Shown one piece after another: positions 1 through 24,136 of a DNA stretch of 24,712 nt; positions within the stretch are counted from its first letter, which is position 1; each line of letters starts with the position of its first letter. The DNA is from Welwitschia mirabilis (Eukaryota). The translations under genes and the position numbers were made by a program. Where the stretch lies: NCBI GenBank assembly GCA_051453625.1, contig JBOZIK010000001.1:19358501-19383212 (forward strand), written 5' to 3'. The notes beneath the pieces were generated by a model. That model was given only the letters and a program-made list of their open reading frames with translations, did not search any database and was not told the origin of the DNA.

Positions 1-936
1 TTCAGCTAAACGAGTTTTAAGATTTTCTTCTAAATTCATAAGATTAAGTTTATAGGTAGAACGATAAGAATTATAACAAACATCAACAGGTAAAACACAG
101 ACTTTACCATATACAAGTTCGTAGGGTGAGAAACCAAGTGAATTACGCCAAGTGGTATGGTAAGCCCAAAGAACATCATTTAGTTTAAAATCCCATGACT
201 TCTAATTACTAGAGACAAGTTTTTGAAGCATTTTTTTGATTTCTTTATTTAGCATTTTTAGCTTGTCCATTGGCTTAAGGATGGTAAGCACAAGCTACTC
301 TATGTTCTATAGCAATGGATAAAAGAACTTTTCTAAAAAGATGATTAATGAAATGAGTTCCCTAATAACTAATAATTATTCAAGGAAAGCTAAAACATTA
401 AAAAATTTGAGTTCTAACAAAGTTACAAATGGTTCGGGCATCATTTGAGGAAGTAAAAACTGCTTCAAACCATTTAGTCACATAATCTATAGCCACTAAA
501 ATGTAATTTTTGTCTTTAAAAGATGGTTTAATTGGGCCTATGACATCGATGTCCTAACAGTCAAAAGGTTCGCACTCAAGAACATGTTTGAGGAGCATTT
601 CCTATGATCGTAAAAGGCTACCAAAACATTAACATGCATCGCACCTTCTAGTATACTCAAAGAGTCCTGAAAAAGACTAGGCCAATAGAATCCAGAGTAA
701 AGAATTTTCATGGTTGTTTTCTGACCGCTAAAATTTCCATCACAAAGATCATCATGATAAAGATGAAGGATATCAAATTTTTCCCATTCTGGTATACATT
801 TTCTCATAATTTGATCCTTACACCTATGATAAAAATGGGGCTCTATCCACTCGTAGTTACCTATCTTATGGAGAAAAGATTTTCTTTAATTATGACTCTA
901 ATTTTGTGGTGTTTTTAAAGTAACAAGATAGTTGAC
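1..936 (-). pseudogene. Gypsy (Athila-like) integrase: Zn-finger region and catalytic core
   Basis: ORF 538-807 reads RKCIPEWEKFDILHLYHDDLCDGNFSGQKTTMKILYSGFYWPSLFQD. Downstream I translate HRVACAYHP*ANGQA, then after a frameshift NKEIKKMLQKLVSSN*KSWDFKLNDVLWAYHTTWRNSLGFSPYELVYGKVCVLPVD. Confidence 0.93.
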
Positions 937-1803
937 NNNNNNNNNNNNNNNNNNNNNNNNNNNNNNNNNNNNNNNNNNNNNNNNNNNNNNNNNNNNNNNN
1001 NNNNNNNNNNNNNNNNNNNNNNNNNNNNNNNNNNNNNNNNNNNNNNNNNNNNNNNNNNNNNNNNNNNNNNNNNNNNNNNNNNNNNNNNNNNNNNNNNNNN
1101 NNNNNNNNNNNNNNNNNNNNNNNNNNNNNNNNNNNNNNNNNNNNNNNNNNNNNNNNNNNNNNNNNNNNNNNNNNNNNNNNNNNNNNNNNNNNNNNNNNNN
1201 NNNNNNNNNNNNNNNNNNNNNNNNNNNNNNNNNNNNNNNNNNNNNNNNNNNNNNNNNNNNNNNNNNNNNNNNNNNNNNNNNNNNNNNNNNNNNNNNNNNN
1301 NNNNNNNNNNNNNNNNNNNNNNNNNNNNNNNNNNNNNNNNNNNNNNNNNNNNNNNNNNNNNNNNNNNNNNNNNNNNNNNNNNNNNNNNNNNNNNNNNNNN
1401 NNNNNNNNNNNNNNNNNNNNNNNNNNNNNNNNNNNNNNNNNNNNNNNNNNNNNNNNNNNNNNNNNNNNNNNNNNNNNNNNNNNNNNNNNNNNNNNNNNNN
1501 NNNNNNNNNNNNNNNNNNNNNNNNNNNNNNNNNNNNNNNNNNNNNNNNNNNNNNNNNNNNNNNNNNNNNNNNNNNNNNNNNNNNNNNNNNNNNNNNNNNN
1601 NNNNNNNNNNNNNNNNNNNNNNNNNNNNNNNNNNNNNNNNNNNNNNNNNNNNNNNNNNNNNNNNNNNNNNNNNNNNNNNNNNNNNNNNNNNNNNNNNNNN
1701 NNNNNNNNNNNNNNNNNNNNNNNNNNNNNNNNNNNNNNNNNNNNNNNNNNNNNNNNNNNNNNNNNNNNNNNNNNNNNNNNNNNNNNNNNNNNNNNNNNNN
1801 NNN

Positions 1804-2606
1804 AAGAATAAGCTCTTTTTCAAATTTAAATGAAGGCCACACTCCATGCATCTATTAAGGACTTTTTCTAATCTTTCTAAGATTTGATTAAAAGTTTCTC
1901 CAAAAATTGAAAAGTCATTCATAAAGATTTCTATCCAATCCTCTAACATGTTTGAAAAGATGCTCATCATAGCACGTTGAAAAGTTCTGGGAGCATTACA
2001 TAGTCTAAAAGGCATTCGTCTAAAAGAAAACATCCCAAAAGCCAAAGTAAAAGTTGTTTTAGCATGGTCTTCACTAGCTATGCAAACCTAGCTATAACCG
2101 CTATATCCATCTAAAAAGCAATTAAACGCATGTCCTTGAATTCTATCGAGTATCTAGTCAAGGAAGGGTAGGGGACAATGATTGTTTTTCATGACTTCAT
2201 TCATCTTTCTAAAATCTATGCATACTCTCAATTTTCCACTCTTCTTTGGTACTTTAGTTAAGGGAATAAACCATTCACTATCTAATATAGCATAAATGAT
2301 TCCAGCATCCATTAATTTGATAATTTCATTCTTAATTACTTGTTCTAGTACTACATTTAATCTGCTTTGTAGTTATCTAACAGGTTTCACATTTTCCTCA
2401 AGATAGATTTTATGCTAAACAATAGAAGAAGGAATAGCAAATAAATCTTTATGAGACCAAATAAAGGCATGAATTTTGGAAGTCAAAAGGAAGATTAAGG
2501 TTGAATCTTTTTTAGAAAAGAGATTTGCATTGTTTATGAAAGGTTTGTTCCGATCGTTACAGAGAAAAATATACTTCAGTTCACTAGGAAGATTTTTTAG
2601 GTTCAA
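1804..2606 (-). pseudogene. Gypsy reverse transcriptase (with upstream LKNLPSELKYIFL linker)
   Basis: KLMDAGIIYAILDSEWFIPLTKVPKKSGKLRVCIDFRKMN...HCPLPFLD*ILDRIQGHAFNCFLDGYSGYS*VCIASEDHAKTTFTLAFGMFSFRRMPFRLCNAPRTFQRAMMSIFSNMLEDWIEIFMNDFSIFG. The catalytic FMDD is mutated to FMND. Confidence 0.95.
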
Positions 2607-2959
2607 GTTTAAATTAAGATTTTCAGTTTCTGACTCATGTAGTGGACGATCTTCCTCAAAGTGTGAGTTTTCACTTGTTCTTAATAGTTGGACTTCCTTA
2701 CAGAATAAGACTTATATTTCTTCTTCATTTTGCTCCAAGAACTGATTTTCTAAATAATCAAAGTTGGACGTATTGAACTCTTCTAAGTTTTCAATTTCAA
2801 GTGGATCGTCAGAAAGCATAAGTTCGTATAACATTAGCCATCTTTCTTCAAGGGGACGATGTTGAAGGAATAAAGTTGGATTGGTTTAATGTGACTTTTT
2901 ACATCCCATTCAATACCTAGGTCTTTCTTAGATACCTTAAAAACTCTAATAGAAAACTT

Positions 2960-3416
2960 TTTGTTCCCTAGATGACACTCCATTGTCCCAGCTCTTGTGT
3001 CGATAATGCAGTGGGCTATTACAGAGAAGGCCCTTCCTATAAGAAATGGGTAACCTCCATTATGTTCGACTTCTATGATAATCATATCTATCAAGTATAA
3101 TACTCCTTCAATTTGGATCACTAAATCTTTGATGTCCCGTAAGGGTTTCTTAATTGAAGTGTCTGCTAATTTCAAGAGAATTCGAGTAGGCTATATTCTA
3201 CCTTCTGATTCAACTCTCTTACAAATATGTAATGGCATGATGTTGACACTTGCTCTAATGTCGATTAAAGATCTTTTTATTCTTTTGTCTCCCTTTAATG
3301 TAACACCCACAGTTACTACCCCTGGGTCCTTAAATTTTGAGATTTTTGTAATACTAAATTTGTAAGAGATTGAGCTAAAAAGACTTTGCTAGGAATATTT
3401 TGTTTTCATTTTCTTC
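2960..3416 (-). pseudogene. Retrotransposon aspartic protease (Athila-type)
   Basis: KFKDPGVVTVGVTLKGDKRIKRSLIDIRASVNIMPL...*PTRILLKLADTSIKKP...PFLIGRAF, matching the KDPG / LCDLGASIN / LADRS / ILGRPF pattern. Confidence 0.9.
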
Positions 3417-4052
3417 NNNNNNNNNNNNNNNNNNNNNNNNNNNNNNNNNNNNNNNNNNNNNNNNNNNNNNNNNNNNNNNNNNNNNNNNNNNNNNNNNNNN
3501 NNNNNNNNNNNNNNNNNNNNNNNNNNNNNNNNNNNNNNNNNNNNNNNNNNNNNNNNNNNNNNNNNNNNNNNNNNNNNNNNNNNNNNNNNNNNNNNNNNNN
3601 NNNNNNNNNNNNNNNNNNNNNNNNNNNNNNNNNNNNNNNNNNNNNNNNNNNNNNNNNNNNNNNNNNNNNNNNNNNNNNNNNNNNNNNNNNNNNNNNNNNN
3701 NNNNNNNNNNNNNNNNNNNNNNNNNNNNNNNNNNNNNNNNNNNNNNNNNNNNNNNNNNNNNNNNNNNNNNNNNNNNNNNNNNNNNNNNNNNNNNNNNNNN
3801 NNNNNNNNNNNNNNNNNNNNNNNNNNNNNNNNNNNNNNNNNNNNNNNNNNNNNNNNNNNNNNNNNNNNNNNNNNNNNNNNNNNNNNNNNNNNNNNNNNNN
3901 NNNNNNNNNNNNNNNNNNNNNNNNNNNNNNNNNNNNNNNNNNNNNNNNNNNNNNNNNNNNNNNNNNNNNNNNNNNNNNNNNNNNNNNNNNNNNNNNNNNN
4001 NNNNNNNNNNNNNNNNNNNNNNNNNNNNNNNNNNNNNNNNNNNNNNNNNNNN

Positions 4053-4396
4053 TTTATAGTACTTTAAGGTTTATTTCAAAAGTTTCTAGAATGGTAAGTT
4101 GATACTCACATTTTGCATTAAGGATTTGAGACATTCGTTGAAGGTTGGATTAATGTTAAGCCTATCAAGCCAAGCGGTAGGTAGTTTCTTTTCTGTTTGT
4201 TGTGAAGAATTTTTCTTTTTAATTTTGCCAAGAGAAGGGAAGTTGTGATGTTTTAGTATTTTAATGTCCTCTTTTTCCTCATCATCCCTAATGTTGTTTT
4301 GGGAGGTTAATGCTTCACAAGGAGGAGGGTTTGCCTCATGTTTACTTCATGTTACAACCTTACAATCTTTTCTCTCTTAGTTAGAATTCAGTAAGG
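4053..4396 (-). pseudogene. Gag C-terminal / gag-protease linker fragment
   Basis: LPTAWLDRL...LMQNVSINLPF*KLLK*TLKYYK resembles the Athila INIPFLEALEQMPKYAKFLK motif. Confidence 0.7.
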
Positions 4397-5516
4397 NNNN
4401 NNNNNNNNNNNNNNNNNNNNNNNNNNNNNNNNNNNNNNNNNNNNNNNNNNNNNNNNNNNNNNNNNNNNNNNNNNNNNNNNNNNNNNNNNNNNNNNNTATC
4501 AAGGAGTGTTCTTTTCTATCTTTTACTTTACTTATTCACTTTAGTCTTCTTAAGTGTATGATCCTGTGGGAATAATTACTCTTTTTGTTAAAAAAATAAA
4601 TAAATAAATAAAATAAAAATAAAAATGAAAAGCATGATGTCCTATCACAAGTACACTGGGGCAAATATTTCCGAGAGGAGCCTTTGGCAATGTGATATGG
4701 TAGCTAAGGGAACTCCACTGGGAGGTCAGTTGGCCATACTTCGCAGGTCCTTACTTCTTTGATTGTGGTTGCAATCCCCTTATCATGGATAATAAAGTTG
4801 TATTTAAACTTTGAGGCTATGGGATTAGTTGTGTTTCTGGTGTTATCAGAGGCATTGCTTGATTCCTAAACTCTTAGTCCTTTCACATGATCATTTCATT
4901 TCTTGAGATTTGGGTGTTTGTTTTGAGATGATGGTAGGTGAGTTCATTTTTGAGAAATTCTTTGGTCTGATCATTCATTGTTTAAAGCATTTTATTTTAG
5001 CATCATCATAACCACTAACTTATTGAATGGAATTTTTATACATTAAGTCATGCATTTTTCACATCAAGTGATGTTACGATTTCTTTTATAGGAGTTTGCT
5101 AGGTTAAAATATCAAATCGATGAGCCTATTTTATGTTATCTTATGCCCATTCTTCTTTATTTTCTTTTGTGACTTAATTGGTTATCTCCAAATCATTATC
5201 GTATGTTATTATCTTATGTTTTTTGTTTAGTTTTCAATAAAAGATAATTTCTTAGATGAGTGTTTTCTTAATAAATTTGTGCAATTTATTTTTCATATTT
5301 TTGGTGTTCTAAGTGCTGCTTGTGTTCTTTTTGTGATGAAACATTTTTTTTACCACTCTTTTCTGTACCTGTCAGAATATTTCATATCTCTTTTTTTTCA
5401 AATCTGACATTACTTAGCTTTGCACTTTATTTAGAAAGTTGTCCTCTTTTACCTATCTTCCCACTCTCGTTTACTTTCTTTGCTTTATTTTCCAATATAG
5501 GATGTATTGCTTTTTC

Positions 5517-5574
5517 TTTTTTTTTTTTTTTTTTGATTAGGGAGAGGGATGGGGGAAAGGGGGAAGAGGGGTGG
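5517..5574 (+). repeat. Poly-T run (T18) followed by a five-tract G-quadruplex-forming motif
   Basis: T-run at 5517-5534, then GGG-AGA-GGG-AT-GGGGG-AAA-GGGGG-AAGA-GGGG at 5540-5571. Confidence 0.8.
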
Positions 5575-5865
5575 TAAAGGCTCATTTTCATGGCTCATTT
5601 AAAATTTTTTTTAACTTAATTCAGATCTTTTATGACATAAAATTTTCAAATTTTTATACACATTATGCATTACTTGTCATTTATCTATGTGATGTATTTT
5701 ATGAGATAGTTTATAAATTCCAGATTTATCTTTTGAAAAACAAATTGGCTCACAGTTATGATTTTTTCACCTAGTTTTTATTAGGAACTGACAAAGACTA
5801 AATGGGGACTATATTACGCTGCCAATTTGTGGTTATTTGATGGGGTTTTATGAGTTGTTTTACAG

Positions 5866-6071
5866 GACTTTTATATAGGTTTAGGTGCAATTCTGAGGAT
5901 TTTGAAGGTTCAATAGGAAATCTCGGAAATGTGCAATTCTTACCCAGATTTGATGTATTAAAGGCAGATTTTGATGCACAGAGCTTTGGAGAAGGATTAC
6001 TAACAAAAATGCTAAGTTTATCCTTAAGAAAATGATCAAAGAAGACCATCATCTCCTTCATCGTCCCCATG
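5866..6071 (+). other. Candidate exon of an unidentified host gene or gene fragment
   Basis: TTGTTTTACAG acceptor ends at 5865 after about 1 kb of T-rich intron-like DNA. Open frame LLYRFRCNSEDFEGSIGNLGNVQFLPRFDVLKADFDAQSFGEGLLTKMLSLSLRK* (stop ends 6035). Family not recognised. Confidence 0.4.
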
Positions 6072-9000
6072 ACATACAGGACGACGACTGCTTATGTGGA
6101 CTATTGAATCATTGTTGAGTCATCATTCTGAGTTATCTTTTATAATGTACTATCATCCCCATTGTCATCTGGATGATAGTCAGANNNNNNNNNNNNNNNN
6201 NNNNNNNNNNNNNNNNNNNNNNNNNNNNNNNNNNNNNNNNNNNNNNNNNNNNNNNNNNNNNNNNNNNNNNNNNNNNNNNNNNNNNNNNNNNNNNNNNNNN
6301 NNNNNNNNNNNNNNNNNNNNNNNNNNNNNNNNNNNNNNNNNNNNNNNNNNNNNNNNNNNNNNNNNNNNNNNNNNNNNNNNNNNNNNNNNNNNNNNNNNNN
6401 NNNNNNNNNNNNNNNNNNNNNNNNNNNNNNNNNNNNNNNNNNNNNGTTGTTCTGTAACCCAGATGATTATTACTTTTTAATATAAAATCTATTTTACTTT
6501 TTATATTTGCATAGTAGAATTTCTGATCTTCCTTATAGTCTATGTTTCCCTTGATCTAGTGACAATTTCTTGGGTGATATAGATTATCAAGGGCAGCCTT
6601 TGTTAAGGCTAAAAGCAAGTAGTATTAGTTCCATTTTTCATTTCATCTAGATAAGTTTCATCTTTTCATTGGCATTACATTCCTTTATTTTCTACATTGT
6701 TATTTATTTTTGGTTCCTATATTTTCTTTTGCAAAGCAATCCGAGTCTCATCTCATAGTCTTCAATGTGAATATGACATTTTGGTTCTACTCTCACTCAT
6801 ACTAGTGTGATGTATTGTGTAAGATATCTTTTTATTTTATGAATTACAGAATCTTTCTGAACTTAAGCACTTGCATAAATACACACCATAACAAGTGGCT
6901 TTTTAAAGTTAAGAATGCTTTCTATGATTTTGTTTCTTTACAAAATATGATGGTACAAGGTAAAGAAAATAACGGTAAAGAAGAACATCTTGAATTTTTG
7001 ATACTTTATTTATAGCAATGCAAAGGTTGATTGCATTAAATGTGGTTTAATTATATCTCCTATCTAAATCTTGGTTATCACTTATTTTCTTTTGATTTTT
7101 TATGGTGCCTTCATTTCTAAGTGAGCCTTATTTTAATTTAAAAATTGTATGTGCACGCATGTATTAAGATTATTTGATGCTCCTTTTATTTTATGTATTA
7201 GATTTATGTTCTTTTATTCTTAGGCTTATTTTTAATCTATATCATTTTTCATAGTTTAGGATATTAAAATTTTGATATAATTTTCTACTTTATAGTGATG
7301 ACATATCTTTGATTGTGCTTTTAGGTATTTGTTCTTTTGAGTTCTCTTTTATGCTTTATTGATCTCCTTTAAAATTCTTAACTAATTTGGTTTCTTCTTT
7401 TTATGTTGATAAAGTTTATTATTTAATTATTAGCATTTATTTTATTAATTGTTATTACAATTATGATGATGATTATGTTAATACATGGAAAACAATACCA
7501 TATTCACCAGGGTTCTTGGTTGGCTTGACTAGGTGTAACTTGACACATTTTATTATATTATCATCTTAGCATATGTTATCTTGTTCTAGGTTCACAAGTT
7601 TATCTTTTATATGTCTATCCCATAAAGGTTTTAGTAAAATTTATATCTGCATGGGAATTCTTTCTTAGTGATCAAGAGTAAGAGGCTTATGACTTGTGAG
7701 ACACGGCAACACATTAAATTATTACTTTTACTCACTGAATTGATCACACTAAAAATTTATCTATTCTATGTTTAGTCATTTCTCTTTTTAATGTTTCATT
7801 ATCACTAAAAGAATAAAATGAGCAATAGTCAAGAACAAACATACAAATGAATACATCTATTCATTTCTTTTTAATAAAATAATAAAGGTTAGATAAAATT
7901 TCCAAGATGAAAAGATTTAAAAAGGCTTGGTATTTGTCCTTTTTTTACACTTATGCACCTATTAAGAAGAGATTACTTGATTTTCCTTTATATTTCATGT
8001 ACCTTAGATTGAGTTATACCTCATTCCATTTTGTATGTCTTCCATAAATCATATAGATTTTTCCACCAATGTCATCTTTATTTTTTTCCCATAATCACAT
8101 GTCTCTTAAACATTCAATAGCTATTTTAATAACATATCTGTGTGGATTCCATTGACATAGCTAGATTTCAACCATGTATCTGAATCCCATTTGTGATTTG
8201 TTTTCATCAACACTTTTGTATAATCAATCTCATCTGTAAAAATTCATTGCATCCATATAATTAAATTTCACCTGTAAAGACAGGCTCCACCTATAATACC
8301 TTTAATTTAACTACACCATGTTAATACATATTGATTTATTATTCCAATAATATTTTGGGGATTTAGATGTAAGTATCTAAGAGAATGTTTTTCTTACAAT
8401 TAGAAAAAGTGTTCAAAATCAAGACATCATTGCCTGAACAACAAGTGTGCTTGAAGACACTAAAAAACAAGGCATCAAGAGATTAAGACAAAGATACTAG
8501 TCCAAATGAAATAAATACAGCAACTAAATAGAATTCAAAGAAAAGACATTATGTGAAAATTTTTAATTCTAATTTTGTGGCTACAACTGATCAATAGAGA
8601 GTTGTATATAACCATTAGCAGTAGCAGTGTCACTTTAGTCATTAGTCATAAGTTTAGGATGAGGTTGTAAGATCAAAGGGATTGAGTTTTAGACAAGCAA
8701 GATGGATTGATAAAGGGACACAATTTTTTTTAAGGTAATGATAATTAATAACTTTAAGAGCACAAAAACCTAAAATGCATAGAAATATTAAGATTTCATT
8801 CAAGCATTATAACAAAATATACTAGCTATGTAAGTCATAGTTTTTCTTTTTATCACATCATTTAAAGATTTATTAGTTCTTAATTATAAAATTACTATAA
8901 ATCATAGCACAAAATTTTAAAGTTTGACATCCTTCCTTCCTTAAATCTTCTTTCCTCAAATAAATAAATATAAAATATTTTCTTTTTATCACAAGGGTTA

Positions 9001-9512: not shown

Positions 9513-9614
9513 AAAGGATTATTACTAAGAATGCAAATATGAATAAACATTAAGCCATCCCATAAAGGATTATTACTAAGAATACAAATACAAGCAAACA
9601 TTAATCCATCCCAT
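9513..9614 (+). repeat. 51-bp tandem duplication (2 copies)
   Basis: AAAGGATTATTACTAAGAATGCAAATATGAATAAACATTAAGCCATCCCAT (9513-9563) versus AAAGGATTATTACTAAGAATACAAATACAAGCAAACATTAATCCATCCCAT (9564-9614). Confidence 0.95.
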
Positions 9615-9932
9615 ATTCTAAAAATTTATCTTACTTTTCTCTCATGTGGAAACCATCAACACAATTTAACTCTATTTAGTCAGGCTGAGCAAGGGACTTA
9701 CTAGATTTATTTATAAGAGAATTAAGTGAAACAACATTCTAAACGAGTTTTAAGCATTATTTCAAAGAATTTTTATGCATTTTATGGGGTTTGCCTAAGT
9801 CTTTGTGAATTTTAGAATGCTATCTTTGACATATTCAACTAGTTTTATAGATAAGTCATACTAAATAAATCATTAAATATATTTGATATATAATTATATT
9901 AAAGAATATGAACATGTAAAAAATGATGATAT

Positions 9933-10396: not shown

Positions 10397-10609
10397 ATCA
10401 AGAGGGACTTTGGAGAGAGAATCAAAAGTCAAATGAAGCCTTAATGTACAAGAAAAAATGAATTTAAATCAACTCATTATTAGTTTATTTTTGGATTATA
10501 AGTGCTAGAACTTCTCTTGACCAAGTATTTTTATTTGAGTATTAATTATTCATTATATGATTAGATGATGTGTTGGTTTAATAACTTCATGTTACAAAAG
10601 TTCCTTAAT

Positions 10610-13421
10610 TTTATGGACCAACTCCCATGTACTATTTTCTACAAGTGCATAGTATTCTTCTTTCATGGCTTGGACCAATAAATTATGTAGAATGATGTAT
10701 TTTAAAGAAGTTGATTTACCCTCAAATGTTAAGTGAATCTCAATATCATCATCATCATGAGTTGTATTCAACCCATGTATAGTTTTAGTTTTACTTTTCT
10801 CATCATCATGAACATCTTGAAAAGTAGGCTATAGCCAAGTACTTCGATGTCATCTCTTAGTAGTATCAATTTCTTCAGTTGAAAAACTCACTGAATTACT
10901 ATTGAAACCATGATTAATCATGCTAAGAGCACAAAGTTGCTTAATTCCTATAGGTTGCAAAGTGGACATATTAATAGAATGAGCTGAAGCATTACTAGTG
11001 GCCACATCTCCCTCCTTAACTGTAGGAACTAGGCATTCAATATGGTCACTGGGTTAGAGGAATGATGAAGATTTGAAGGATCGAGCTAAGAATTATTGTT
11101 TGAAGTCTCTAAAAATATGAATAATGGAAAACAATGATCTTATGATGCTCTATGAGACACACTTAATAACCCTTCTATTCAGTTGGATATCCCATAAAGA
11201 TGCTGATGTGAGAATGTACTTCAAATTTGTCACAATGTTCTCTTTAAATATAGACATATCAATTGCAATAAAAAAGGTGAAATTGGTTCAAATTTGACTT
11301 GTACCCATATCACATTTTAGCTAGATATACTCCTTTTTCAATATATCAACCAATATGATTATTAATATGTACTACATTGTTTACTGCTTCACCCCAAAAA
11401 TAGGTCTTACAACCATTGAAATACATCATGAAATGTGTCATATCCATGGTTATTCAATTAAATCACTCAATAATACCCTTTTATTGGGGTATCCCTAGGT
11501 AGGTATTCAAATGTCAAATCCCTTCAGAAGTAAGAAAGTCCTTGAACTCGACAGTTGTGTTCTCACCATCATTAGCTGAGTAGAAACTTTTAATATGATA
11601 GTCAACTTTCTTTTTAACTTTAGTTTTAAAATTCTTGAAAATATCTAAAGTTTACAATTTGTATTTGATGAGATATATCCCAGCCATTTGGAAATAATTA
11701 TTAATATAGGAAATAACGCAACAAAATCTATGGAAAATGGAAACTGACATAGGTCCACATAGATCACTATGAATAAATAAAAGATTTTGATTAACATGTA
11801 ATTTAATTAATGAAAACTACTATCTAGTTATTTTTGACCAGAATAAATGCTTCACACTAACGAAAATTCCGTGATATGGACAAAAAATGCTTATGCCATT
11901 TTCATGTATTACATTCATTATGCTAAGAGTAGAATGCCCTAGTCGAGCATGCCATAGTAGTAAGGGAGATATCTCATCTTGTAAAAGGGCATAGGTGGTC
12001 TCTCACATTCTAACACAACCATAAAGATGAAAACACTTACCATCCATATAGCCTTTCATAACCAATAATCAATTATCATCATAAATGTCCACTGAGTGCT
12101 TCATCATGGAAATAGAGTGATCTTCTTACATCATACTTAAAAGTAATAGAAGATGAAATCATAAAAAAGAAATATACAAAACATGTAAAATAGTTTGTGA
12201 AGAGAGCAATGTCTAGTTAAGGGTAATCAAACCATAATCTTCTAAAAAAACTAGTGTTTTATCTACTTAATAAACATGAGCTAGTGCTTTAACAAATTCA
12301 TTAGAATAATTGTATTGATAAGTTATGTAATGAGTTTCACCTGTGTCAAGAATCCTTATCTCATTATAAGGTATGTATTGACTTATACTAATAAAATAAA
12401 AGTTTTAAAAAAATAGCATTTGATTCAAAGTTTTCAACATCATCAAGGGAATTAGATTCTTTAGTAACTGCATTTTTCTTAGGCATAGAATCTATCTTAT
12501 CCCAAGGAATCCTACAAAATTCTGTTGTCTTATCTTGTCTTCCACATTATGGGCATTGATATTTTCTCTTCTTAGGAGTCATAGTATTTAAAACTTACTC
12601 CTTGTTTTACTATTTCTAATTAGGGTTCTTGTTTTATGATTGCTGTGGAGCCTTATCCTCATCATGGTGCAATTCCTTTTGCAGATGGAATTTGCTAATA
12701 GGTTATTTATTTTTATGAGGAGTGCCATGAAAATGAGAAACTTTACATGCAGCTTCAAAGGAAGAAGATGTGATGAAGTTAAACTAAGATTTAGTAGAAA
12801 TAAAATTCTTATTAAGTATATCAAAAGTCATATTATTTGATGGCTTACTGCCATGTAGTGGCATAATATAAGTACATGTAAAGAATTATTTCAAACAACA
12901 ATGGATTAAGTTGACATAATGAATGCAAAATTGTTTTTATGAATCAATCTTCACTACCTTTAGCTTGATGTCTTACATCTATGCAATAAATTATCTTATC
13001 TTTCCTTTCTCATAATGTAAATTGTTCATGTGAGTTATAAGGTTAAGAAGCTCCAAATTATTTTTGGAGTAGAATGTGTTCCTCAAGATATAGAATTTGG
13101 TATCACTTGTTTTGGTACAATCACTAAACCTACTATATTGATAAGAGATAAGTTTACACATAATCTATAATCAATTTTTTGTCAATATGTTACTAAGTAA
13201 CTTATTTAGTTAGATCGTGAAGAAGTGTATGATCATGTATTAATAATTCCTTTTCATAATCATAAATCTACACGGTTAGTATGAAATCCTCATACCAAAC
13301 CCAACATGACTCATGATCTTAAAGAGTGACTCTGATATTGGTCATGATCCTAAAGAATGGATGTGAAAGACTCTAACAATCACTAAAACTTACCCTTTGA
13401 AGATGATGATATCTATGCCAT
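10610..13421 (-). pseudogene. Degenerate Ty1/copia gag-pol (gag, Zn knuckle, protease, integrase, first residues of RT)
   Basis: Zn knuckle QCP*CGRQDKTTEFC (~12515-12560); protease ILDTGETHYIT (~12322-12355); LLWHARLGH (~11935-11962); FIHSDLCGPM (~11748-11778); FWGEAVNNVVHINN; IFMGYPTE*KGY; RT start VQAMKEEYYALVENSTWELV (~10617-10676). Integrase before RT is the copia order. The gag start at 13421 is tentative. Confidence 0.93.
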
Positions 13422-14664: not shown

Positions 14665-14843
14665 TTGATTACATAAGCTCATCCAACTTGTTATTAATTA
14701 ATCTTGTCATTGTCATTCACATTTCCATATCACTTTTATACAAAGTCCATCCAACTTGTTATTAATCAATCTTATCATTGTCACTAATATGTCAATGTCA
14801 TTTTTACATAAGATCCATTCAACTTGTCATTAATCAATCTTAT
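14665..14843 (+). repeat. 68-bp tandem repeat, about 2.6 copies, just upstream of the LTR TATA box
   Basis: CATYCAACTTGTYATTAATYAATCTT recurs at 14680, 14748 and 14816. Confidence 0.9.
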
Positions 14844-18838: not shown

Positions 18839-21005
18839 TGTAGCATCATCTAATGTTCTAATGTTGCCTACAAAGCAAAACAAAAATCTTATTAGTACAT
18901 TTTTGTATAGCATTTTGATATTTTAATATAAAGCTAAAAAGCTAATATTTTGAAATATCATTGTGAACATGTAATTACTTGCTCTTGTTTCTACAACTAA
19001 AGATGGATTAAGATAATTAGTAATACTTAGAAATAATTATTATTCACCATTTCATCTAAAATATATATCATGCTTTTTTATTTTCTTATTCCCTATAATG
19101 TAATATATTTATATAGTAAACTTATCAATTATCAACCTGACTAGTTCAAGTAACTTCATCATGAGCTTTTTGTGGTGATGCATTTTGAACTAAATGGTTG
19201 AAGTACAAATAGTCTTAACTAGTTCTTTAGTAAACCTGTCACATTCAAAATTTTTCAAGGTCCAAAGGTTTAGCTTAAAATTTTAATTAAAATAATTTTA
19301 TTATTATAGAGTCCTCAAGTTAGTTTTATTATTGCATGTATTTACTTCATGACTTCCATTTGTGTAATCTTATTGTGAAAATTTTGTGCATAACTCCTCA
19401 CATTTTTTAGTAGTCATAATATTATCCTTGTTAAAAATTCTTATGGTTTAATTATGGTTCTTGTGGTTAAAATCTTATAATTTTTTCACTCATATCTAGA
19501 AAATAGTTTAAAATATGGTTGTTGAAAATTTTTCATTATTGTAATAATTGCATGATGAGCATCACTATTTATTGTTATGATATTAATGCACCTAGTGGCC
19601 TCACAAGGAATGGAATAAGGGTGGTTACCAAATCCTTGAAAACTTTTGCCGCCTTGACCATCCTTTGCATTTCACCAAACCTGAGTTATAAATAGAACCC
19701 TTTTCCTCCTTTCTCCTTACTTTTATTTTGAAGAAGCCTTTACTACTAAATCTTAGAGCTTGGATAACCCTTCGAGCCTTTGAGCCTTGGAATCTTTGAG
19801 ATTTTTTGAATCTTCAAATTAATTTGGGTATGTTTTTATGGCTTAATCTATTTTCTTATATGGTTCTTGTGTTTTTTCATTTAACTCTTGTATGACTTAT
19901 GGTTCTTTGATTCCTTTCTTATATGATTTTTTATTCTTTGAATCCTTTCTTGTATGGCTTATGGTCCTTTGATTTCTTTCTTGTATGGTTTATATTTCTT
20001 TAATTATTTTCTTAAATGATTTATGAGCTTCCATCTATTTCTTGCATCTCTTATATGTTTCATGGATTTTCCCTGCTATCTTATTTATTCATATAAGTCT
20101 TTTCTTACGTATATAATATCTTAGTTGTGAATTCAATTCTATTCTTTAAACTTTGCTAAGTAATCAAATTATGTGGATTCAAGGGCTGGACCGCCTAAAG
20201 GGATCCCATTGACCATGGGAGTGAGCTATCAGAGTGATCATGGTGATGTTTGTGACCCTTCTAGTTATGCATAAGATGCAGCTTCAAAGGGTTTATCCCA
20301 CATGAAGGGTTCCTATTGGCCATGAGAATTAACCTTTAACAAATGGATATTTTTGACATGCTTCTGACAGATCATACTATTCATTATACATTATTGAATT
20401 ATCGAGACTTGGAATTGTATCTGGATTATTGTATCTAATATAAGGTTTTGATTATTCGATATTCTTAAGAATCCCTTGTTGAGATTGAAAAACCCCTGAC
20501 TTAAAACCTTGTCATGGATCATATTAGGAACTATGAATGTTATAGTTCTCACACCATGTTGTTTGTGTTTAACAGGTGGTTGAGTGAAGCATAGAAAAAA
20601 CTGATCTGTCTTACTAAGAAGGGCATTTAAAATGTTTATTTTTCTAGCTTGTGCATGACAAATTATAAAAATAGAGTGATTTGTTCATCCTTATAACTTA
20701 TATTCTATTATATGTTATGATTTACTTTTGAGATATGATGTCAATTTATTACTTGTGCTATCCTCGAATTAAAGAAGGCTTATTTTCTCTTATGTGAGTC
20801 ATTTATCTTCTCTACCTTCAAAATATACTCAAGGATGTATTTTATTTGCATGCATATAAGTTCATTTAAGAATAGTTGGCTCAAATATATAATAAAAGCA
20901 TTTGCTAAAGTTTAAGCTCATAGTTTTGGATTAAAAATTCTATGACATTTCATTTTGATATCAAAGCTACATGAAGTTTTTAAGTGTGGAATTTGATATG
21001 TTACA
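18839..21005 (+). mobile_element. ~2.2 kb gypsy-type (Tekay/Del-like) 5' LTR; left boundary uncertain
   Basis: Ends GATATGTTACA immediately before a PBS. Candidate start TGTAGCATCATC. TATAAATA at 19687-19694 is followed by a pyrimidine tract and GAGCTT/GAGCCTT repeats. Confidence 0.7.
19826..20041 (+). repeat. 31-bp minisatellite, 5-7 degenerate copies, inside the LTR
   Basis: Unit TTGTATGGCTTATGGTCCTTTGATTTCTTTC starts at 19888, 19919, 19950, 19981 and 20012, with weaker copies upstream. Confidence 0.88.
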
Positions 21006-21950: not shown

Positions 21951-22296
21951 GCTTAATCAGAAGCAAGCGGCATTGCTTCCCTTAGCAACTGCAGACATAT
22001 AACTTACTCCTTCATAAATTCTCGGGCCTTCGTATGTGTTGATGTCTTATGTCTTGCATTTGCTTATCATGCCTTATCCTTTCTTCTATCACTCATACAA
22101 GGCGCACATCGTCATTTCTCCCATGATGCATTTTTGCTCTTAATTTTTAGTGATTCAACACTGATAATCTCAACTCTGCTACAAAAGACTTGGTACTGTA
22201 ATTTCATAGTTTAATCATAAGTCTCATGTTTTTATTAGATCATCTAATAATCTTCGTGCCTTTTAAAATCAAATAATCATTGAACTTAGTTGGTAA

Positions 22297-22380
22297 TGTT
22301 GGAATAATGGACCTATATACAATGTATATGGACTTGTTTGTTGGAATAATGGACCTACATACATTGTATATGGGCTTATT
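22297..22380 (+). repeat. 42-bp tandem duplication of the LTR 5' terminus
   Basis: TGTTGGAATAATGGACCTATATACAATGTATATGGACTTGTT (22297) and TGTTGGAATAATGGACCTACATACATTGTATATGGGCTTATT (22339), 4 differences. Confidence 0.95.
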
Positions 22381-22789
22381 ATGATTATTTAGTTACAATT
22401 GTATATTATGTGCTATCATATGGTGTGGCCTAAATAAAGTGATCCACTCAAGTTAAGGTTAAGTGGGTTATAAATCATCTTGTAAAGTATGGGTCCATAT
22501 TTATGTGTAGATACCCAATCTGCTTATTTTTAATTAATGATGGGCTGATTAGAAATAAGGGTTTATAAATAAACACACTAGGATTATGGTCCCCTGTCGA
22601 ATGAACGTAGTCTCCTACTAATATCCCATCATTAGAGAGAGAAAACCCTAACGCTCGTACCAACTAGAAGTCACATAACCCAAAGGGGATTTAATGGAAC
22701 TAGGTGCGCTTCTACCTTCTTATTCTAATCTAGATAATTTGATATAAAGATTATAGTTTATTATTTGGTTATGAAATTTAATTCCATCA
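22297..22789 (+). mobile_element. ~490 bp 5' LTR, probably Ty1/copia
   Basis: Termini TGTTGGAAT...ATTCCATCA (8/9 inverted match), TATAAATA at 22564-22571, and a perfect PBS directly downstream. Superfamily inferred from LTR size and style only, since no coding region is visible. Confidence 0.88.
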
Positions 22790-22791
22790 AG

Positions 22792-22804
22792 TGGTATCAG
22801 AGCC
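22792..22804 (+). other. tRNA-iMet primer binding site
   Basis: Perfect TGGTATCAGAGCC, 2 nt after the LTR-terminal CA. Confidence 0.95.
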
Positions 22805-23548
22805 TCCTTCATATTAGATTATTTGGAATCTATTTTGTATTAAATTAATATGAATTATTTGTTTTTATGTGTGATGAATATTCAATTTGTTTCGACTTTG
22901 GAATTGCATGAATCAGATTTATCACTTTTTATGTGATTAGTAGTTTCAGATCTCCTTTAGGGGATTAATTTAGTTTTAAATGATATTGGTTTTGGTGATG
23001 ATGCTTTTGTCTATTTGATTTTAGTTTCTGCTTTGAGTTTTCTTTTACTGCATATGATAAACATTAGAATATTTATTTTTTTGATTGGCTATATCTCTCT
23101 TTGAGGATTCATGTATCATAGCATATATGAGATGCATGATTATTATGACTAGTATTTTCAATAATCATTATTGTAATTGCTAATAATATGCCACATGCTT
23201 TCGTTCAGGATTCCATAGTAAATCTTCCTTGATTATTTTATTGTATTTCTCTTTTACAGGTATTCATATTAGAAATTTATTGTCAGACATTTGGGTAAAC
23301 TTATTGGTAATATATTTTATTACTAAGATGTTGTTAATTCATGAATTCTTAATGATATCATCACTCGACCATGCATGTTTATAATTTTTTATATTTTTTG
23401 TTGCCAATAATGGTTTAGTTATTTCAAGGATTGCTATGGTTATTCTGCAAGACAATATTAGCATATATTCTATTTACATTTACATGATGACATATAAATT
23501 CGGATTCAGATTTAAATTTTTGGTAATAAGGTTATAATTTTCTGATAT

Positions 23549-23890
23549 ATCTAATATTCTAAATTAGTTAATTTATACAATATGTTACCAAAGGAATCTC
23601 TTTTGTGTATATTGATTAATTTGAAATATTAAGATGATTGTAGGTGTTTGAATTTCATGCATTTAACAACTTGCTCAAAGAAAGTTTATTATTTGGCTAG
23701 AATTCAAACATGCTTATGGTGATGAATATGTGATAATTATTAGGTTTTCCATGTGAATGTTAAGTCAGCCCAAAGATAGACTTGATATTTGACATGAATT
23801 TTATTGTCAATATTTGATCACTGCAAAAAGAGTACCGCTTACAAGTTGATCTTTCTATCCAAAGACTAAAAATCAATGTTGTGCTAGGTA
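23549..23890 (+). repeat. Array of four long imperfect inverted repeats with shared CAAAG loop motif in the retroelement leader
   Basis: Stems at 23549-23635, 23645-23710, 23724-23815 and 23833-23890. CAAAG sits at 23589, 23676, 23771 and 23860, each between the arms. Confidence 0.85.
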
Positions 23891-24136
23891 TCTTGTGATG
23901 GGTTTTGCCTTTATTTNNNNNNNNNNNNNNNNNNNNNNNNNNNNNNNNNNNNNNNNNNNNNNNNNNNNNNNNNNNNNNNNNNNNNNNNNNNNNNNNNNNN
24001 NNNNNNNNNNNNNNNNTACCTTAATTACCCGATAATTATGAAGTTAATTATACCTATTATAATCTAATTTTATGAATCATTGTTGCAGTGCATATTTTGG
24101 TAACCCTTTTACCTTAATGAATCCTAATAATCACAA

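Follow-up and report, generated by a model that had tools for sequence, protein, structure and literature searches.

A periodic array of four RNA hairpins with unrelated stems and a common CAAA tip in the leader of a high-copy Ty1/copia retrotransposon

LTR retrotransposons make up the bulk of many plant genomes, and to our knowledge the way in which these elements choose RNA for packaging is essentially uncharacterised, the split between translation and replication being equally unclear. Among retroviruses, Psi, a domain of the 5' leader that serves packaging and dimerisation, is represented by the stem-loops SL1-SL4 of HIV-1 and by those of MoMLV, which bear conserved GACG tetraloops. Tandem repeats in the untranslated regions of plant LTR retrotransposons were reportedly described by Macas et al. 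in 2009, and a 2007 paper by Tanskanen is said to be the primary account of the PSI and DIS motifs of BARE. Excerpts of PMC3735527 and PMC4350172 mention these motifs as proposals for the untranslated leader of two barley copia elements, BARE1 and BARE2, and the TR-GAG study covered by the same excerpts saw no significant structure in the leader of the family that it examined. In the reverse-transcribing plant viruses CaMV and RTBV, a purine-rich packaging signal sits atop a leader stem-loop (PMC5902531, excerpt). In STNV-1, dispersed and degenerate stem-loops present AxxA loops on variable stems, and the excerpted text itself doubts the in vivo relevance of such dispersed signals (PMC6475782).

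The locus described here lies in a window of 24,712 nt from Welwitschia mirabilis (the whole stretch of DNA that was analysed), which is AT-rich and plant-like and is interrupted by five N gaps. It contains four real hairpins in a row, with unrelated stems and a common CAAA tip. No published description of this array was found in the open-access literature, and none of the systems above combines four regularly spaced units with a single tetraloop module. Like retroviral Psi, it places several stem-loops side by side, each ending in a conserved tetraloop, in the interval bounded by the PBS and the gag AUG (the latter known from a relative, L003), it belongs to the sense genomic RNA, and a splice donor, here a donor-like site, lies among the stem-loops. 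Unlike Psi, its CAAA tip is closed by C-G and has no exposed G, its hairpins are much longer (60-105 nt), its donor-like site is at the 3' end rather than 5' of the hairpins, and its likeness to Psi is one of predicted structure. BARE1 and BARE2 offer a plant Ty1/copia leader with predicted cis-acting packaging or dimerisation structures, although a periodic array or common tetraloop goes unmentioned in the excerpts of PMC3735527 and PMC4350172. With CaMV and RTBV, as portrayed in the excerpt cited above, the array shares a plant reverse-transcribing element, a long AUG-rich leader and an A-rich apical loop on a stable stem; there the capsid protein binds the RNA, for which the counterpart here is a predicted knuckle in the Gag of relatives, but those are viruses with one large elongated hairpin, a single signal and a different PBS position, whereas this is a retrotransposon with four hairpins. 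STNV-1, as excerpted, follows a like principle, with many stem-loops on any stem, a short common loop and multivalent capsid binding (here proposed); variable stems with one loop motif, as in STNV or MS2, occur here in four of four hairpins in two copies, yet the STNV-1 signals are spread genome-wide and those of the array are confined to the leader at a regular spacing of about 90 nt. The tandem repeats in untranslated regions of plant LTR elements are likewise a periodic feature of a non-coding part, but the units of the array have no common sequence beyond the tip.

The host of the array is the leader of a Ty1/copia retrotransposon, and the description in the earlier note as a retrotransposon leader is supported by the LTR and PBS upstream, by a step in sequencing depth at the LTR start and by the copia gag that follows the array in L003. 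The 5' LTR (22297..22789, + strand) runs from TGTTGG to CATCA, with a tandem doubling of the first 42 nt according to a repeat search of the window. Two bases past its end lies the PBS TGGTATCAGAGC (22792..22803, + strand), which we take to be the complement of the 3' end of plant initiator tRNA-Met; the TG..CA-ended repeat directly before a PBS is of the Ty1/copia type. In DNA runs from two organisms, contig depth climbs from about 10-23 in the flank to 2000-7000 in the bin 22283-22343, a step of roughly 100-fold or more where the LTR begins, and from there onward it stays at 190-7800 and remains high through the array, which therefore belongs to a very high-copy element. The repeat search detected no second LTR copy in the window; the element enters an N gap and leaves the window, and tblastn gave no match to gag within the window, where the N gap follows the array. 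A copia fragment at 11166-11957 (- strand) was considered as a comparison copy and set aside as belonging to another lineage (29% identity).

From the PBS to the N gap the leader spans 1113 nt with 37 ATG, and no ORF of at least 90 aa was found in it. Its upstream part (22804..23547, + strand) is AT-rich and ORF-free, and its fold does not surpass that of shuffles (z -1.17); in DNA contigs 88-471 nt of it are passed over, so its length differs among family copies. The earlier note had placed a fifth, weaker hairpin here at 23401..23450 (+ strand), and this one did not hold up, with z +0.15 and 109 of 200 + strand shuffles folding equally well; no homology was detectable between this interval and L003.

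The four hairpins themselves are as the earlier note described them. Each was folded alone and compared with 200 dinucleotide shuffles on the + strand. Hairpin 1 (23548..23635, CAAA tip at 23589-23592) has z -4.55, with 0 of 200 shuffles as good; hairpin 2 (23644..23711, tip at 23676-23679) has z -2.01 (8/200); hairpin 3, which with its extended base covers 23718..23822 (tip at 23771-23774), has z -2.87, or -2.98 for its core (1/200); and hairpin 4 (23828..23895, tip at 23860-23863) has z -1.70 for its core (14/200) and -1.31 when extended. The repeat search independently returned the inverted repeats 23552-23580/23603-23631 and 23645-23669/23686-23710, which are the arms of hairpins 1 and 2, and all four hairpins appear in both the MFE and the centroid fold of 23390-23916 and again in those of 23540-23900. 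Against shuffles, the longer of these intervals is unremarkable (z -0.75 on the + strand, -0.30 on the - strand), which taken literally is the outcome that the earlier note had named as counting against it; the array alone, 23540-23900, reaches z -2.79 with 1 of 100 shuffles as good.

CAAAG starts at 23589, 23676, 23771 and 23860, at the spacing of 87, 95 and 89 nt given in the earlier note, and is apical in all four predicted folds. Among the 45 + strand CAAAG sites of the window, those of the array are enclosed by 36, 31, 29 and 29 pairs and the next best by 26. Outside the array, the tip of an equally good hairpin falls at 20 of 3638 sampled positions (0.55%), so four consecutive hairpins with one pentamer lie far beyond chance. 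The stems are not copies of one another, as had been claimed: motif-anchored identity among the units is 25-32% against 30% expected from composition, pairwise unit alignments give z-scores of -1.46 to +2.50, and TRF finds no period near 90, on which grounds a tandem repeat or satellite in a retrotransposon untranslated region was rejected. As the earlier note had it, every 3' arm in the window is followed by GATG or GATC; in L003 three of four are.

A homologous copy came from a scan of metagenome contigs in which hairpins 1-3 supplied the search pattern, namely their tips at the spacing found in the window. Six loci were returned, of which one, L003 (1220 nt), is homologous to the array and the other five (L001, L002 and L004-L006) are chance matches. 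L003 and the window are 72% identical over 365 nt, with 23550-23906 matching L003 268-621. CAAAG lies at 307, 395, 489 and 576 of L003 (spacing 88, 94, 87), and the MFE and centroid folds contain the same four hairpins. The array of L003 folds with z -5.30 (0/100 shuffles) and its 531-nt leader with z -4.22 (0/100). Taken singly on the + strand, the counterpart of hairpin 1 (262-352) has z -2.77 and that of hairpin 2 (353-436) z -5.68 (0/200); hairpin 3 depends on its limits, with -2.90 for the full base and -0.16 for narrower bounds, and the counterpart of hairpin 4 with its full base (540-614) has -4.08 (0/200), or -1.92 with narrower bounds. Since the scan demanded the tips of hairpins 1-3, their conservation in L003 is a matter of ascertainment. 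The ten-letter tip of hairpin 4, TCCAAAGACT, was outside the search pattern and is identical at 10 of 10 positions.

L003 also shows where the array ends. A copia gag begins at base 666 (Pfam Retrotran_gag_2, 34.7 bits against a cut-off of 27; the ORF is broken after residue 168), and its ATG follows hairpin 4 by about 55 nt. The array thus stops before gag, and the suggestion that it might continue into the N gap is probably wrong. Elsewhere the search yielded no further copy: viral contigs had no match to the LTR-PBS junction, to two conserved blocks or to the gag protein, and a two-tip-motif scan of genome contigs gave 26 loci, all bacterial or archaeal and without BLAST similarity to the array, against about 27 chance matches estimated by hand.

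In the folds of L003, each tip module presents CAAA as a tetraloop; the pair that closes it is C-G, the mini-helix on which it stands has 2-4 bp, and an internal loop usually lies between the module and the long stem. In the window, the tetraloop of hairpin 2 is closed by U.G instead. Pairs 2 and 3 of the mini-helix vary from hairpin to hairpin, so what is kept is the helix rather than its sequence. Two of the mini-helices are weakened in the window copy, and beside the loops, at 23594, 23675, 23681 and 23769, both the read majority and L003 carry a letter able to pair with the opposite base. The tip region of hairpin 2 bears five changes private to the window copy. At 23672, 23675, 23681 and 23685 the window differs from the read majority and from L003, and at 23688 it differs from the read majority but not from L003. 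Among the 40 differences listed (of 287 places where window and reads differ), 13 fall in the array, and L003 sides with the read majority at 9 of them, which marks the window copy as old and privately mutated. Transitions predominate among the read-versus-window differences at the places listed.

The structure belongs to the sense strand. Summed over the eight hairpins of the window and L003, folding energy is -147.8 kcal/mol on the + strand against -85.1 on the - strand, and seven of the eight are stronger on the + strand. On the - strand, the window hairpins have z -1.30, -1.91, -0.52 and -2.42 and those of L003 -0.23, +0.45, -0.44 and -1.41, the exceptions to near-zero values being window hairpin 4 and the extended hairpin 3 of L003 (-3.05). 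The earlier note had pointed to an excess of G-T mismatches that would pair as G.U in the sense RNA; the raw counts agree (20 G.T against 7 A.C, p 0.019), but p rises to 0.16 once composition is allowed for, and the excess was therefore dropped as evidence.

Covariation was assessed between two DNA copies, the window and L003. RNAalifold on a MAFFT alignment of the whole array gives z -3.58 (0/60) on the + strand and -2.28 (3/60) on the - strand against column shuffles, and the consensus folds of single hairpins give -4.28 for hairpin 3 (0/200), which is the best-conserved unit, -3.46 for hairpin 4 and -2.42 for hairpin 1; the value of -0.80 for hairpin 2 is uninformative because MAFFT misaligns this hairpin. 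With the window structure laid on the alignment, 85% of cells pair, compared with 36-44% when partners are slid, and 12 pairs are changed on both sides yet still paired, against 0-4 when slid, a count that 12 of 500 shuffles reach. Pairs that differ between the copies include a U-A pair of the hairpin 1 mini-helix that is C-G in L003, the hairpin 4 pair 23848/23874, which is G-C in the window and A-U in L003, and the outer helix of hairpin 2, fully paired in both copies (12 and 16 pairs) with several pairs differing and with three extra pairs in L003, on both arms.

A structure-blind alignment of the arms is less favourable. Over the 125 window pairs, 70 are unchanged, 23 broken and 14 in gaps, 12 are kept with one change and 6 with two, so that broken pairs outnumber kept ones among the changed (23 against 18). 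One-sided changes are kept in 12 of 32 cases, near the expectation for neutral drift, and two-sided changes in 6 of 9. The claim of the earlier note that structure and loop were selected stands at moderate strength, carried by the four hairpins, spacing and tips found again in L003, by pairing that exceeds the shuffled and slid controls and by the strand bias, with the near-neutral one-sided changes against it. Taken together, the two alignments give moderate rather than strong evidence that pairing was selected.

Traces of the array reach beyond the family. The gag of L003 has 233 homologues at E of at most 1e-5, among them full-length copia polyproteins from many eudicots, which measure 1300-1380 aa and carry rve and RVT_2 domains. 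The homologue sequences include a CCHC knuckle in Gag, and in one of these relatives (P0005) the integrase motifs lie before YVDD, which places integrase before reverse transcriptase. The conserved start of gag reads (A/S)STISAN..IP.LNGTNF, with no conserved Met upstream, and predicted starts spread from 1 to about 55 residues upstream of (A/S)STISAN. In 6 of the 120 gag homologues listed, translated hairpin 4 with its tip appears upstream as the peptide ..ITVQRLDINVVL(G/A); the carriers are Abeliophyllum (two), Olea, Lupinus and Citrus (one each) and one ENA contig, which also bears the hairpin 3 tip as ..SKDS... Second codon positions in these traces imply that one stem pair of hairpin 4 is A-U, G.U (Olea) or G-C (Citrus), and at the pair beside it L003 has A-U where the window has G-C. 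Residues 1-82 of P0003 (translated leader), used as a query, retrieved P0003 itself and nothing else.

Several explanations can be offered for these observations. The earlier note had proposed a multivalent protein-binding RNA scaffold and listed packaging, splicing or translation control and a small-RNA source as its uses; the position of the array favours packaging, but the functions offered are not narrowed by computation alone, splicing being still live and a small-RNA source fitting worst. The array is probably a handle by which the RNA of the element is recognised, most likely for packaging. More specifically, we tentatively favour a sense-strand, Psi-like recognition domain for Gag, although we give it somewhat less than an even chance of being right. 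The position of the array, its sense-strand structure, the identical tip on arbitrary stems and the knuckle in Gag point in this direction. On such a model, the array would be a selected domain of the sense genomic RNA occupying the 3' end of the leader, past the PBS and ahead of gag, and its four long stems would be free to drift while each presents one CAAA module; the CCHC zinc knuckle of Gag would bind the four tips multivalently and thereby pick full-length RNA for packaging into virus-like particles. We infer both steps, the reading of the tips by Gag and packaging as its outcome. Retroviral zinc knuckles prefer an exposed G, and the tetraloop here exposes A's without an unpaired G, which speaks against the Psi-like view.

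The same hairpins could instead serve splicing. Here hairpin 4 would hide a 5' splice site of the leader, the array would govern how large a share of the RNA loses an intron of about 94 nt before gag, and the region that begins with the 3' arm of hairpin 3 and includes hairpin 4 may even be translated, as a small first exon. The donor-like site CTAG/GTATC (23884..23892, + strand; the slash marks the putative splice point) forms part of the basal helix of hairpin 4, paired in the window and in L003 alike, and lies in one of the blocks that these two copies conserve best. In L003, positions 603-696 (94 nt) begin with GT and close, behind a U-rich tract, with an AG that sits directly ahead of conserved gag; immediately 5' of the GT this copy is shorter than the window by a single base, and its two frames are out of register by one. 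Five of the six trace-bearing gene models, from four genera, splice at that exact point, ending an exon after VVL(G/A) and resuming just before the conserved gag start, and the lack of a conserved Met ahead of (A/S)STISAN in the gag homologues also agrees with an upstream exon. Against this, the gene models may be ab initio predictions, or one may have been modelled on another, and the putative exon-1 frame holds stops in both DNA copies. The donor consensus has a G at +5, which the weak donor GTATCT lacks. Two RNA runs gave no splice joint from leader to gag, among 5 and 2 reads at a likeness of at least 80% (none at 95% or more), too few to speak of expression; their sole joint (23276 to 23419) occurs in DNA contigs too. 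The common tip on hairpins 1-3 is also left unexplained, and known copia introns sit around the protease, not in the leader (PMC5580714, excerpt). On balance we regard splicing control as unlikely.

The one donor-like site encountered sits 3' of the array and bears on the Psi-like view as well, because spliced and unspliced RNAs would then both carry the array, whereas a Psi-type signal is expected on unspliced RNA only, downstream of the major donor. The two functions could also be joined in an RNA switch shared across this lineage, a copia clade widespread in eudicots, in which the tips recruit Gag to full-length RNA and hairpin 4 masks the donor. Whether an RNA is spliced into a translatable gag mRNA or left unspliced and packaged as genome would then depend on opening of the hairpin or binding of Gag. 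As a whole we consider this switch, too, an unlikely description of the array.

A rather unlikely account, though one that part of the comparative evidence fits, is that the hairpins have no function in RNA and are quasi-palindromes that arose and persist through DNA-level inverted duplication and template switching inside palindromes, and that decay neutrally in both copies. One-sided changes do break pairs at about the neutral rate, and similarly strong hairpins are not rare in this AT-rich window, hairpin 1 ranking about 15th among 2221 windows of 90 nt for folding. Imperfect palindromes can undergo a templated "correction" that looks like compensatory change and could mimic compensation here. 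Neutral decay leaves unexplained why four unrelated stems carry one asymmetric tip (a chance of about 0.0055 per site), why folding is so strongly asymmetric between strands, and why the hairpin 4 tip is kept in rosid and asterid copies.

Control of translation, by an IRES-like platform or a ribosome shunt that would carry ribosomes to the gag AUG past the AUG-laden leader, is improbable. The length of the leader and its many ATG make scanning implausible, the array abuts the gag AUG in L003, and a short uORF ending in ATGTGA lies at the 5' base of hairpin 3 in both copies, reminiscent of plant pararetrovirus leaders, which according to the excerpt of PMC5902531 pair a short uORF and a large stem with an apical purine-rich packaging signal. 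The geometry is nevertheless unlike that described in the excerpt, as the stop of this conserved uORF falls inside the helix rather than a few nt before it as in a CaMV-type shunt (PMC5902531), and the array consists of four separate hairpins, not one elongated stem.

A small-RNA source or decoy (Dicer substrates, miRNA-like precursors or hairpin siRNA loci) is very improbable and fits worst, because, although stems of about 22-36 pairs with few mismatches have the size of precursors, the tips are conserved while the stems drift, the opposite of miRNA genes with their conserved stem and variable loop, and Rfam (E up to 10) places no known family in the array. Elsewhere, Rfam gave sub-threshold matches only, namely mir-4536 at the LTR start (26.8 bits against 76) and SNORD73 at 23479-23549 (24.5 against 42), both rejected. 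There is also a small chance that the array is something other than a Psi-like domain or any of these four rivals.

As for packaging signals in plant LTR elements, the predicted PSI and DIS motifs of BARE are the only ones that we encountered (excerpts of PMC3735527 and PMC4350172). The array offers a compact and defined candidate, four hairpins with one invariant tetraloop module and a masked donor-like site, in a family of very high copy number, with traces in several eudicot genera. If the RNA switch were true, plant Ty1/copia elements would gain in it both their first defined packaging signal and their first intron in the leader. The question of packaging becomes directly testable by Gag binding, structure probing and reporter packaging, and the array provides a searchable signature with which this lineage and its non-autonomous riders can be annotated.

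A GT donor-like site lies within the base of hairpin 4 of the array (window 23884-23892; in L003, the metagenome contig that carries the same four hairpins, the site and the stretch after it occupy 596-696). In L003, a 94-nt GT..AG stretch follows this site and ends just before the conserved start of gag, and five gene models from four genera place their splice point at the donor-like site in the hairpin 4 base. The available portion of a paper on copia splicing (PMC5580714) makes no mention of such a leader intron.

Among the 120 protein homologues listed of the 233 that match L003 gag (P0001-P0120), the gag N-terminus is conserved without a conserved start codon, and the predicted starts scatter widely. 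F, L, S, and V are abundant among the residues preceding the conserved part in these same listed matches, which is what translation of a U-rich tract would yield.

The 5′ end of L003 (positions 1-165) is unrelated to the window leader and contains tRNA T-arm-like words on both strands; ARAGORN called no tRNA there. This segment may be a SINE-like insertion, or it may mark a breakpoint that truncated the leader of the L003 copy.

Elsewhere in the window are tandem repeats with periods of 51 nt (9513-9615), 68 nt (14680-14843), and 31 nt (19886-20024), together with a decayed remnant of another, unrelated copia element on the minus strand (11166-11957; fragments 10592-12002). Its integrase is 29% identical to P0005, one of the gag-matching proteins, and the fragments also include ORF remnants resembling the start of reverse transcriptase and gag-pre-integrase. 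In the Ty1/copia element that carries the array, the LTR begins with two tandem copies of a 42-nt unit (22297-22380, 92% alike), and the sole Rfam match to this interval was miRNA-like and sub-threshold.

In the upstream leader, CTTTGG at 22896-22901 is complementary to the CCAAAG tips of the array, and there are two further CTTTG at 23031 and 23099; these are candidate partners for long-range or intermolecular pairing with the tips. Family DNA contigs from both organisms skip 88-471 nt within 23046-23518, and thus the length of the leader upstream of the array differs between copies.
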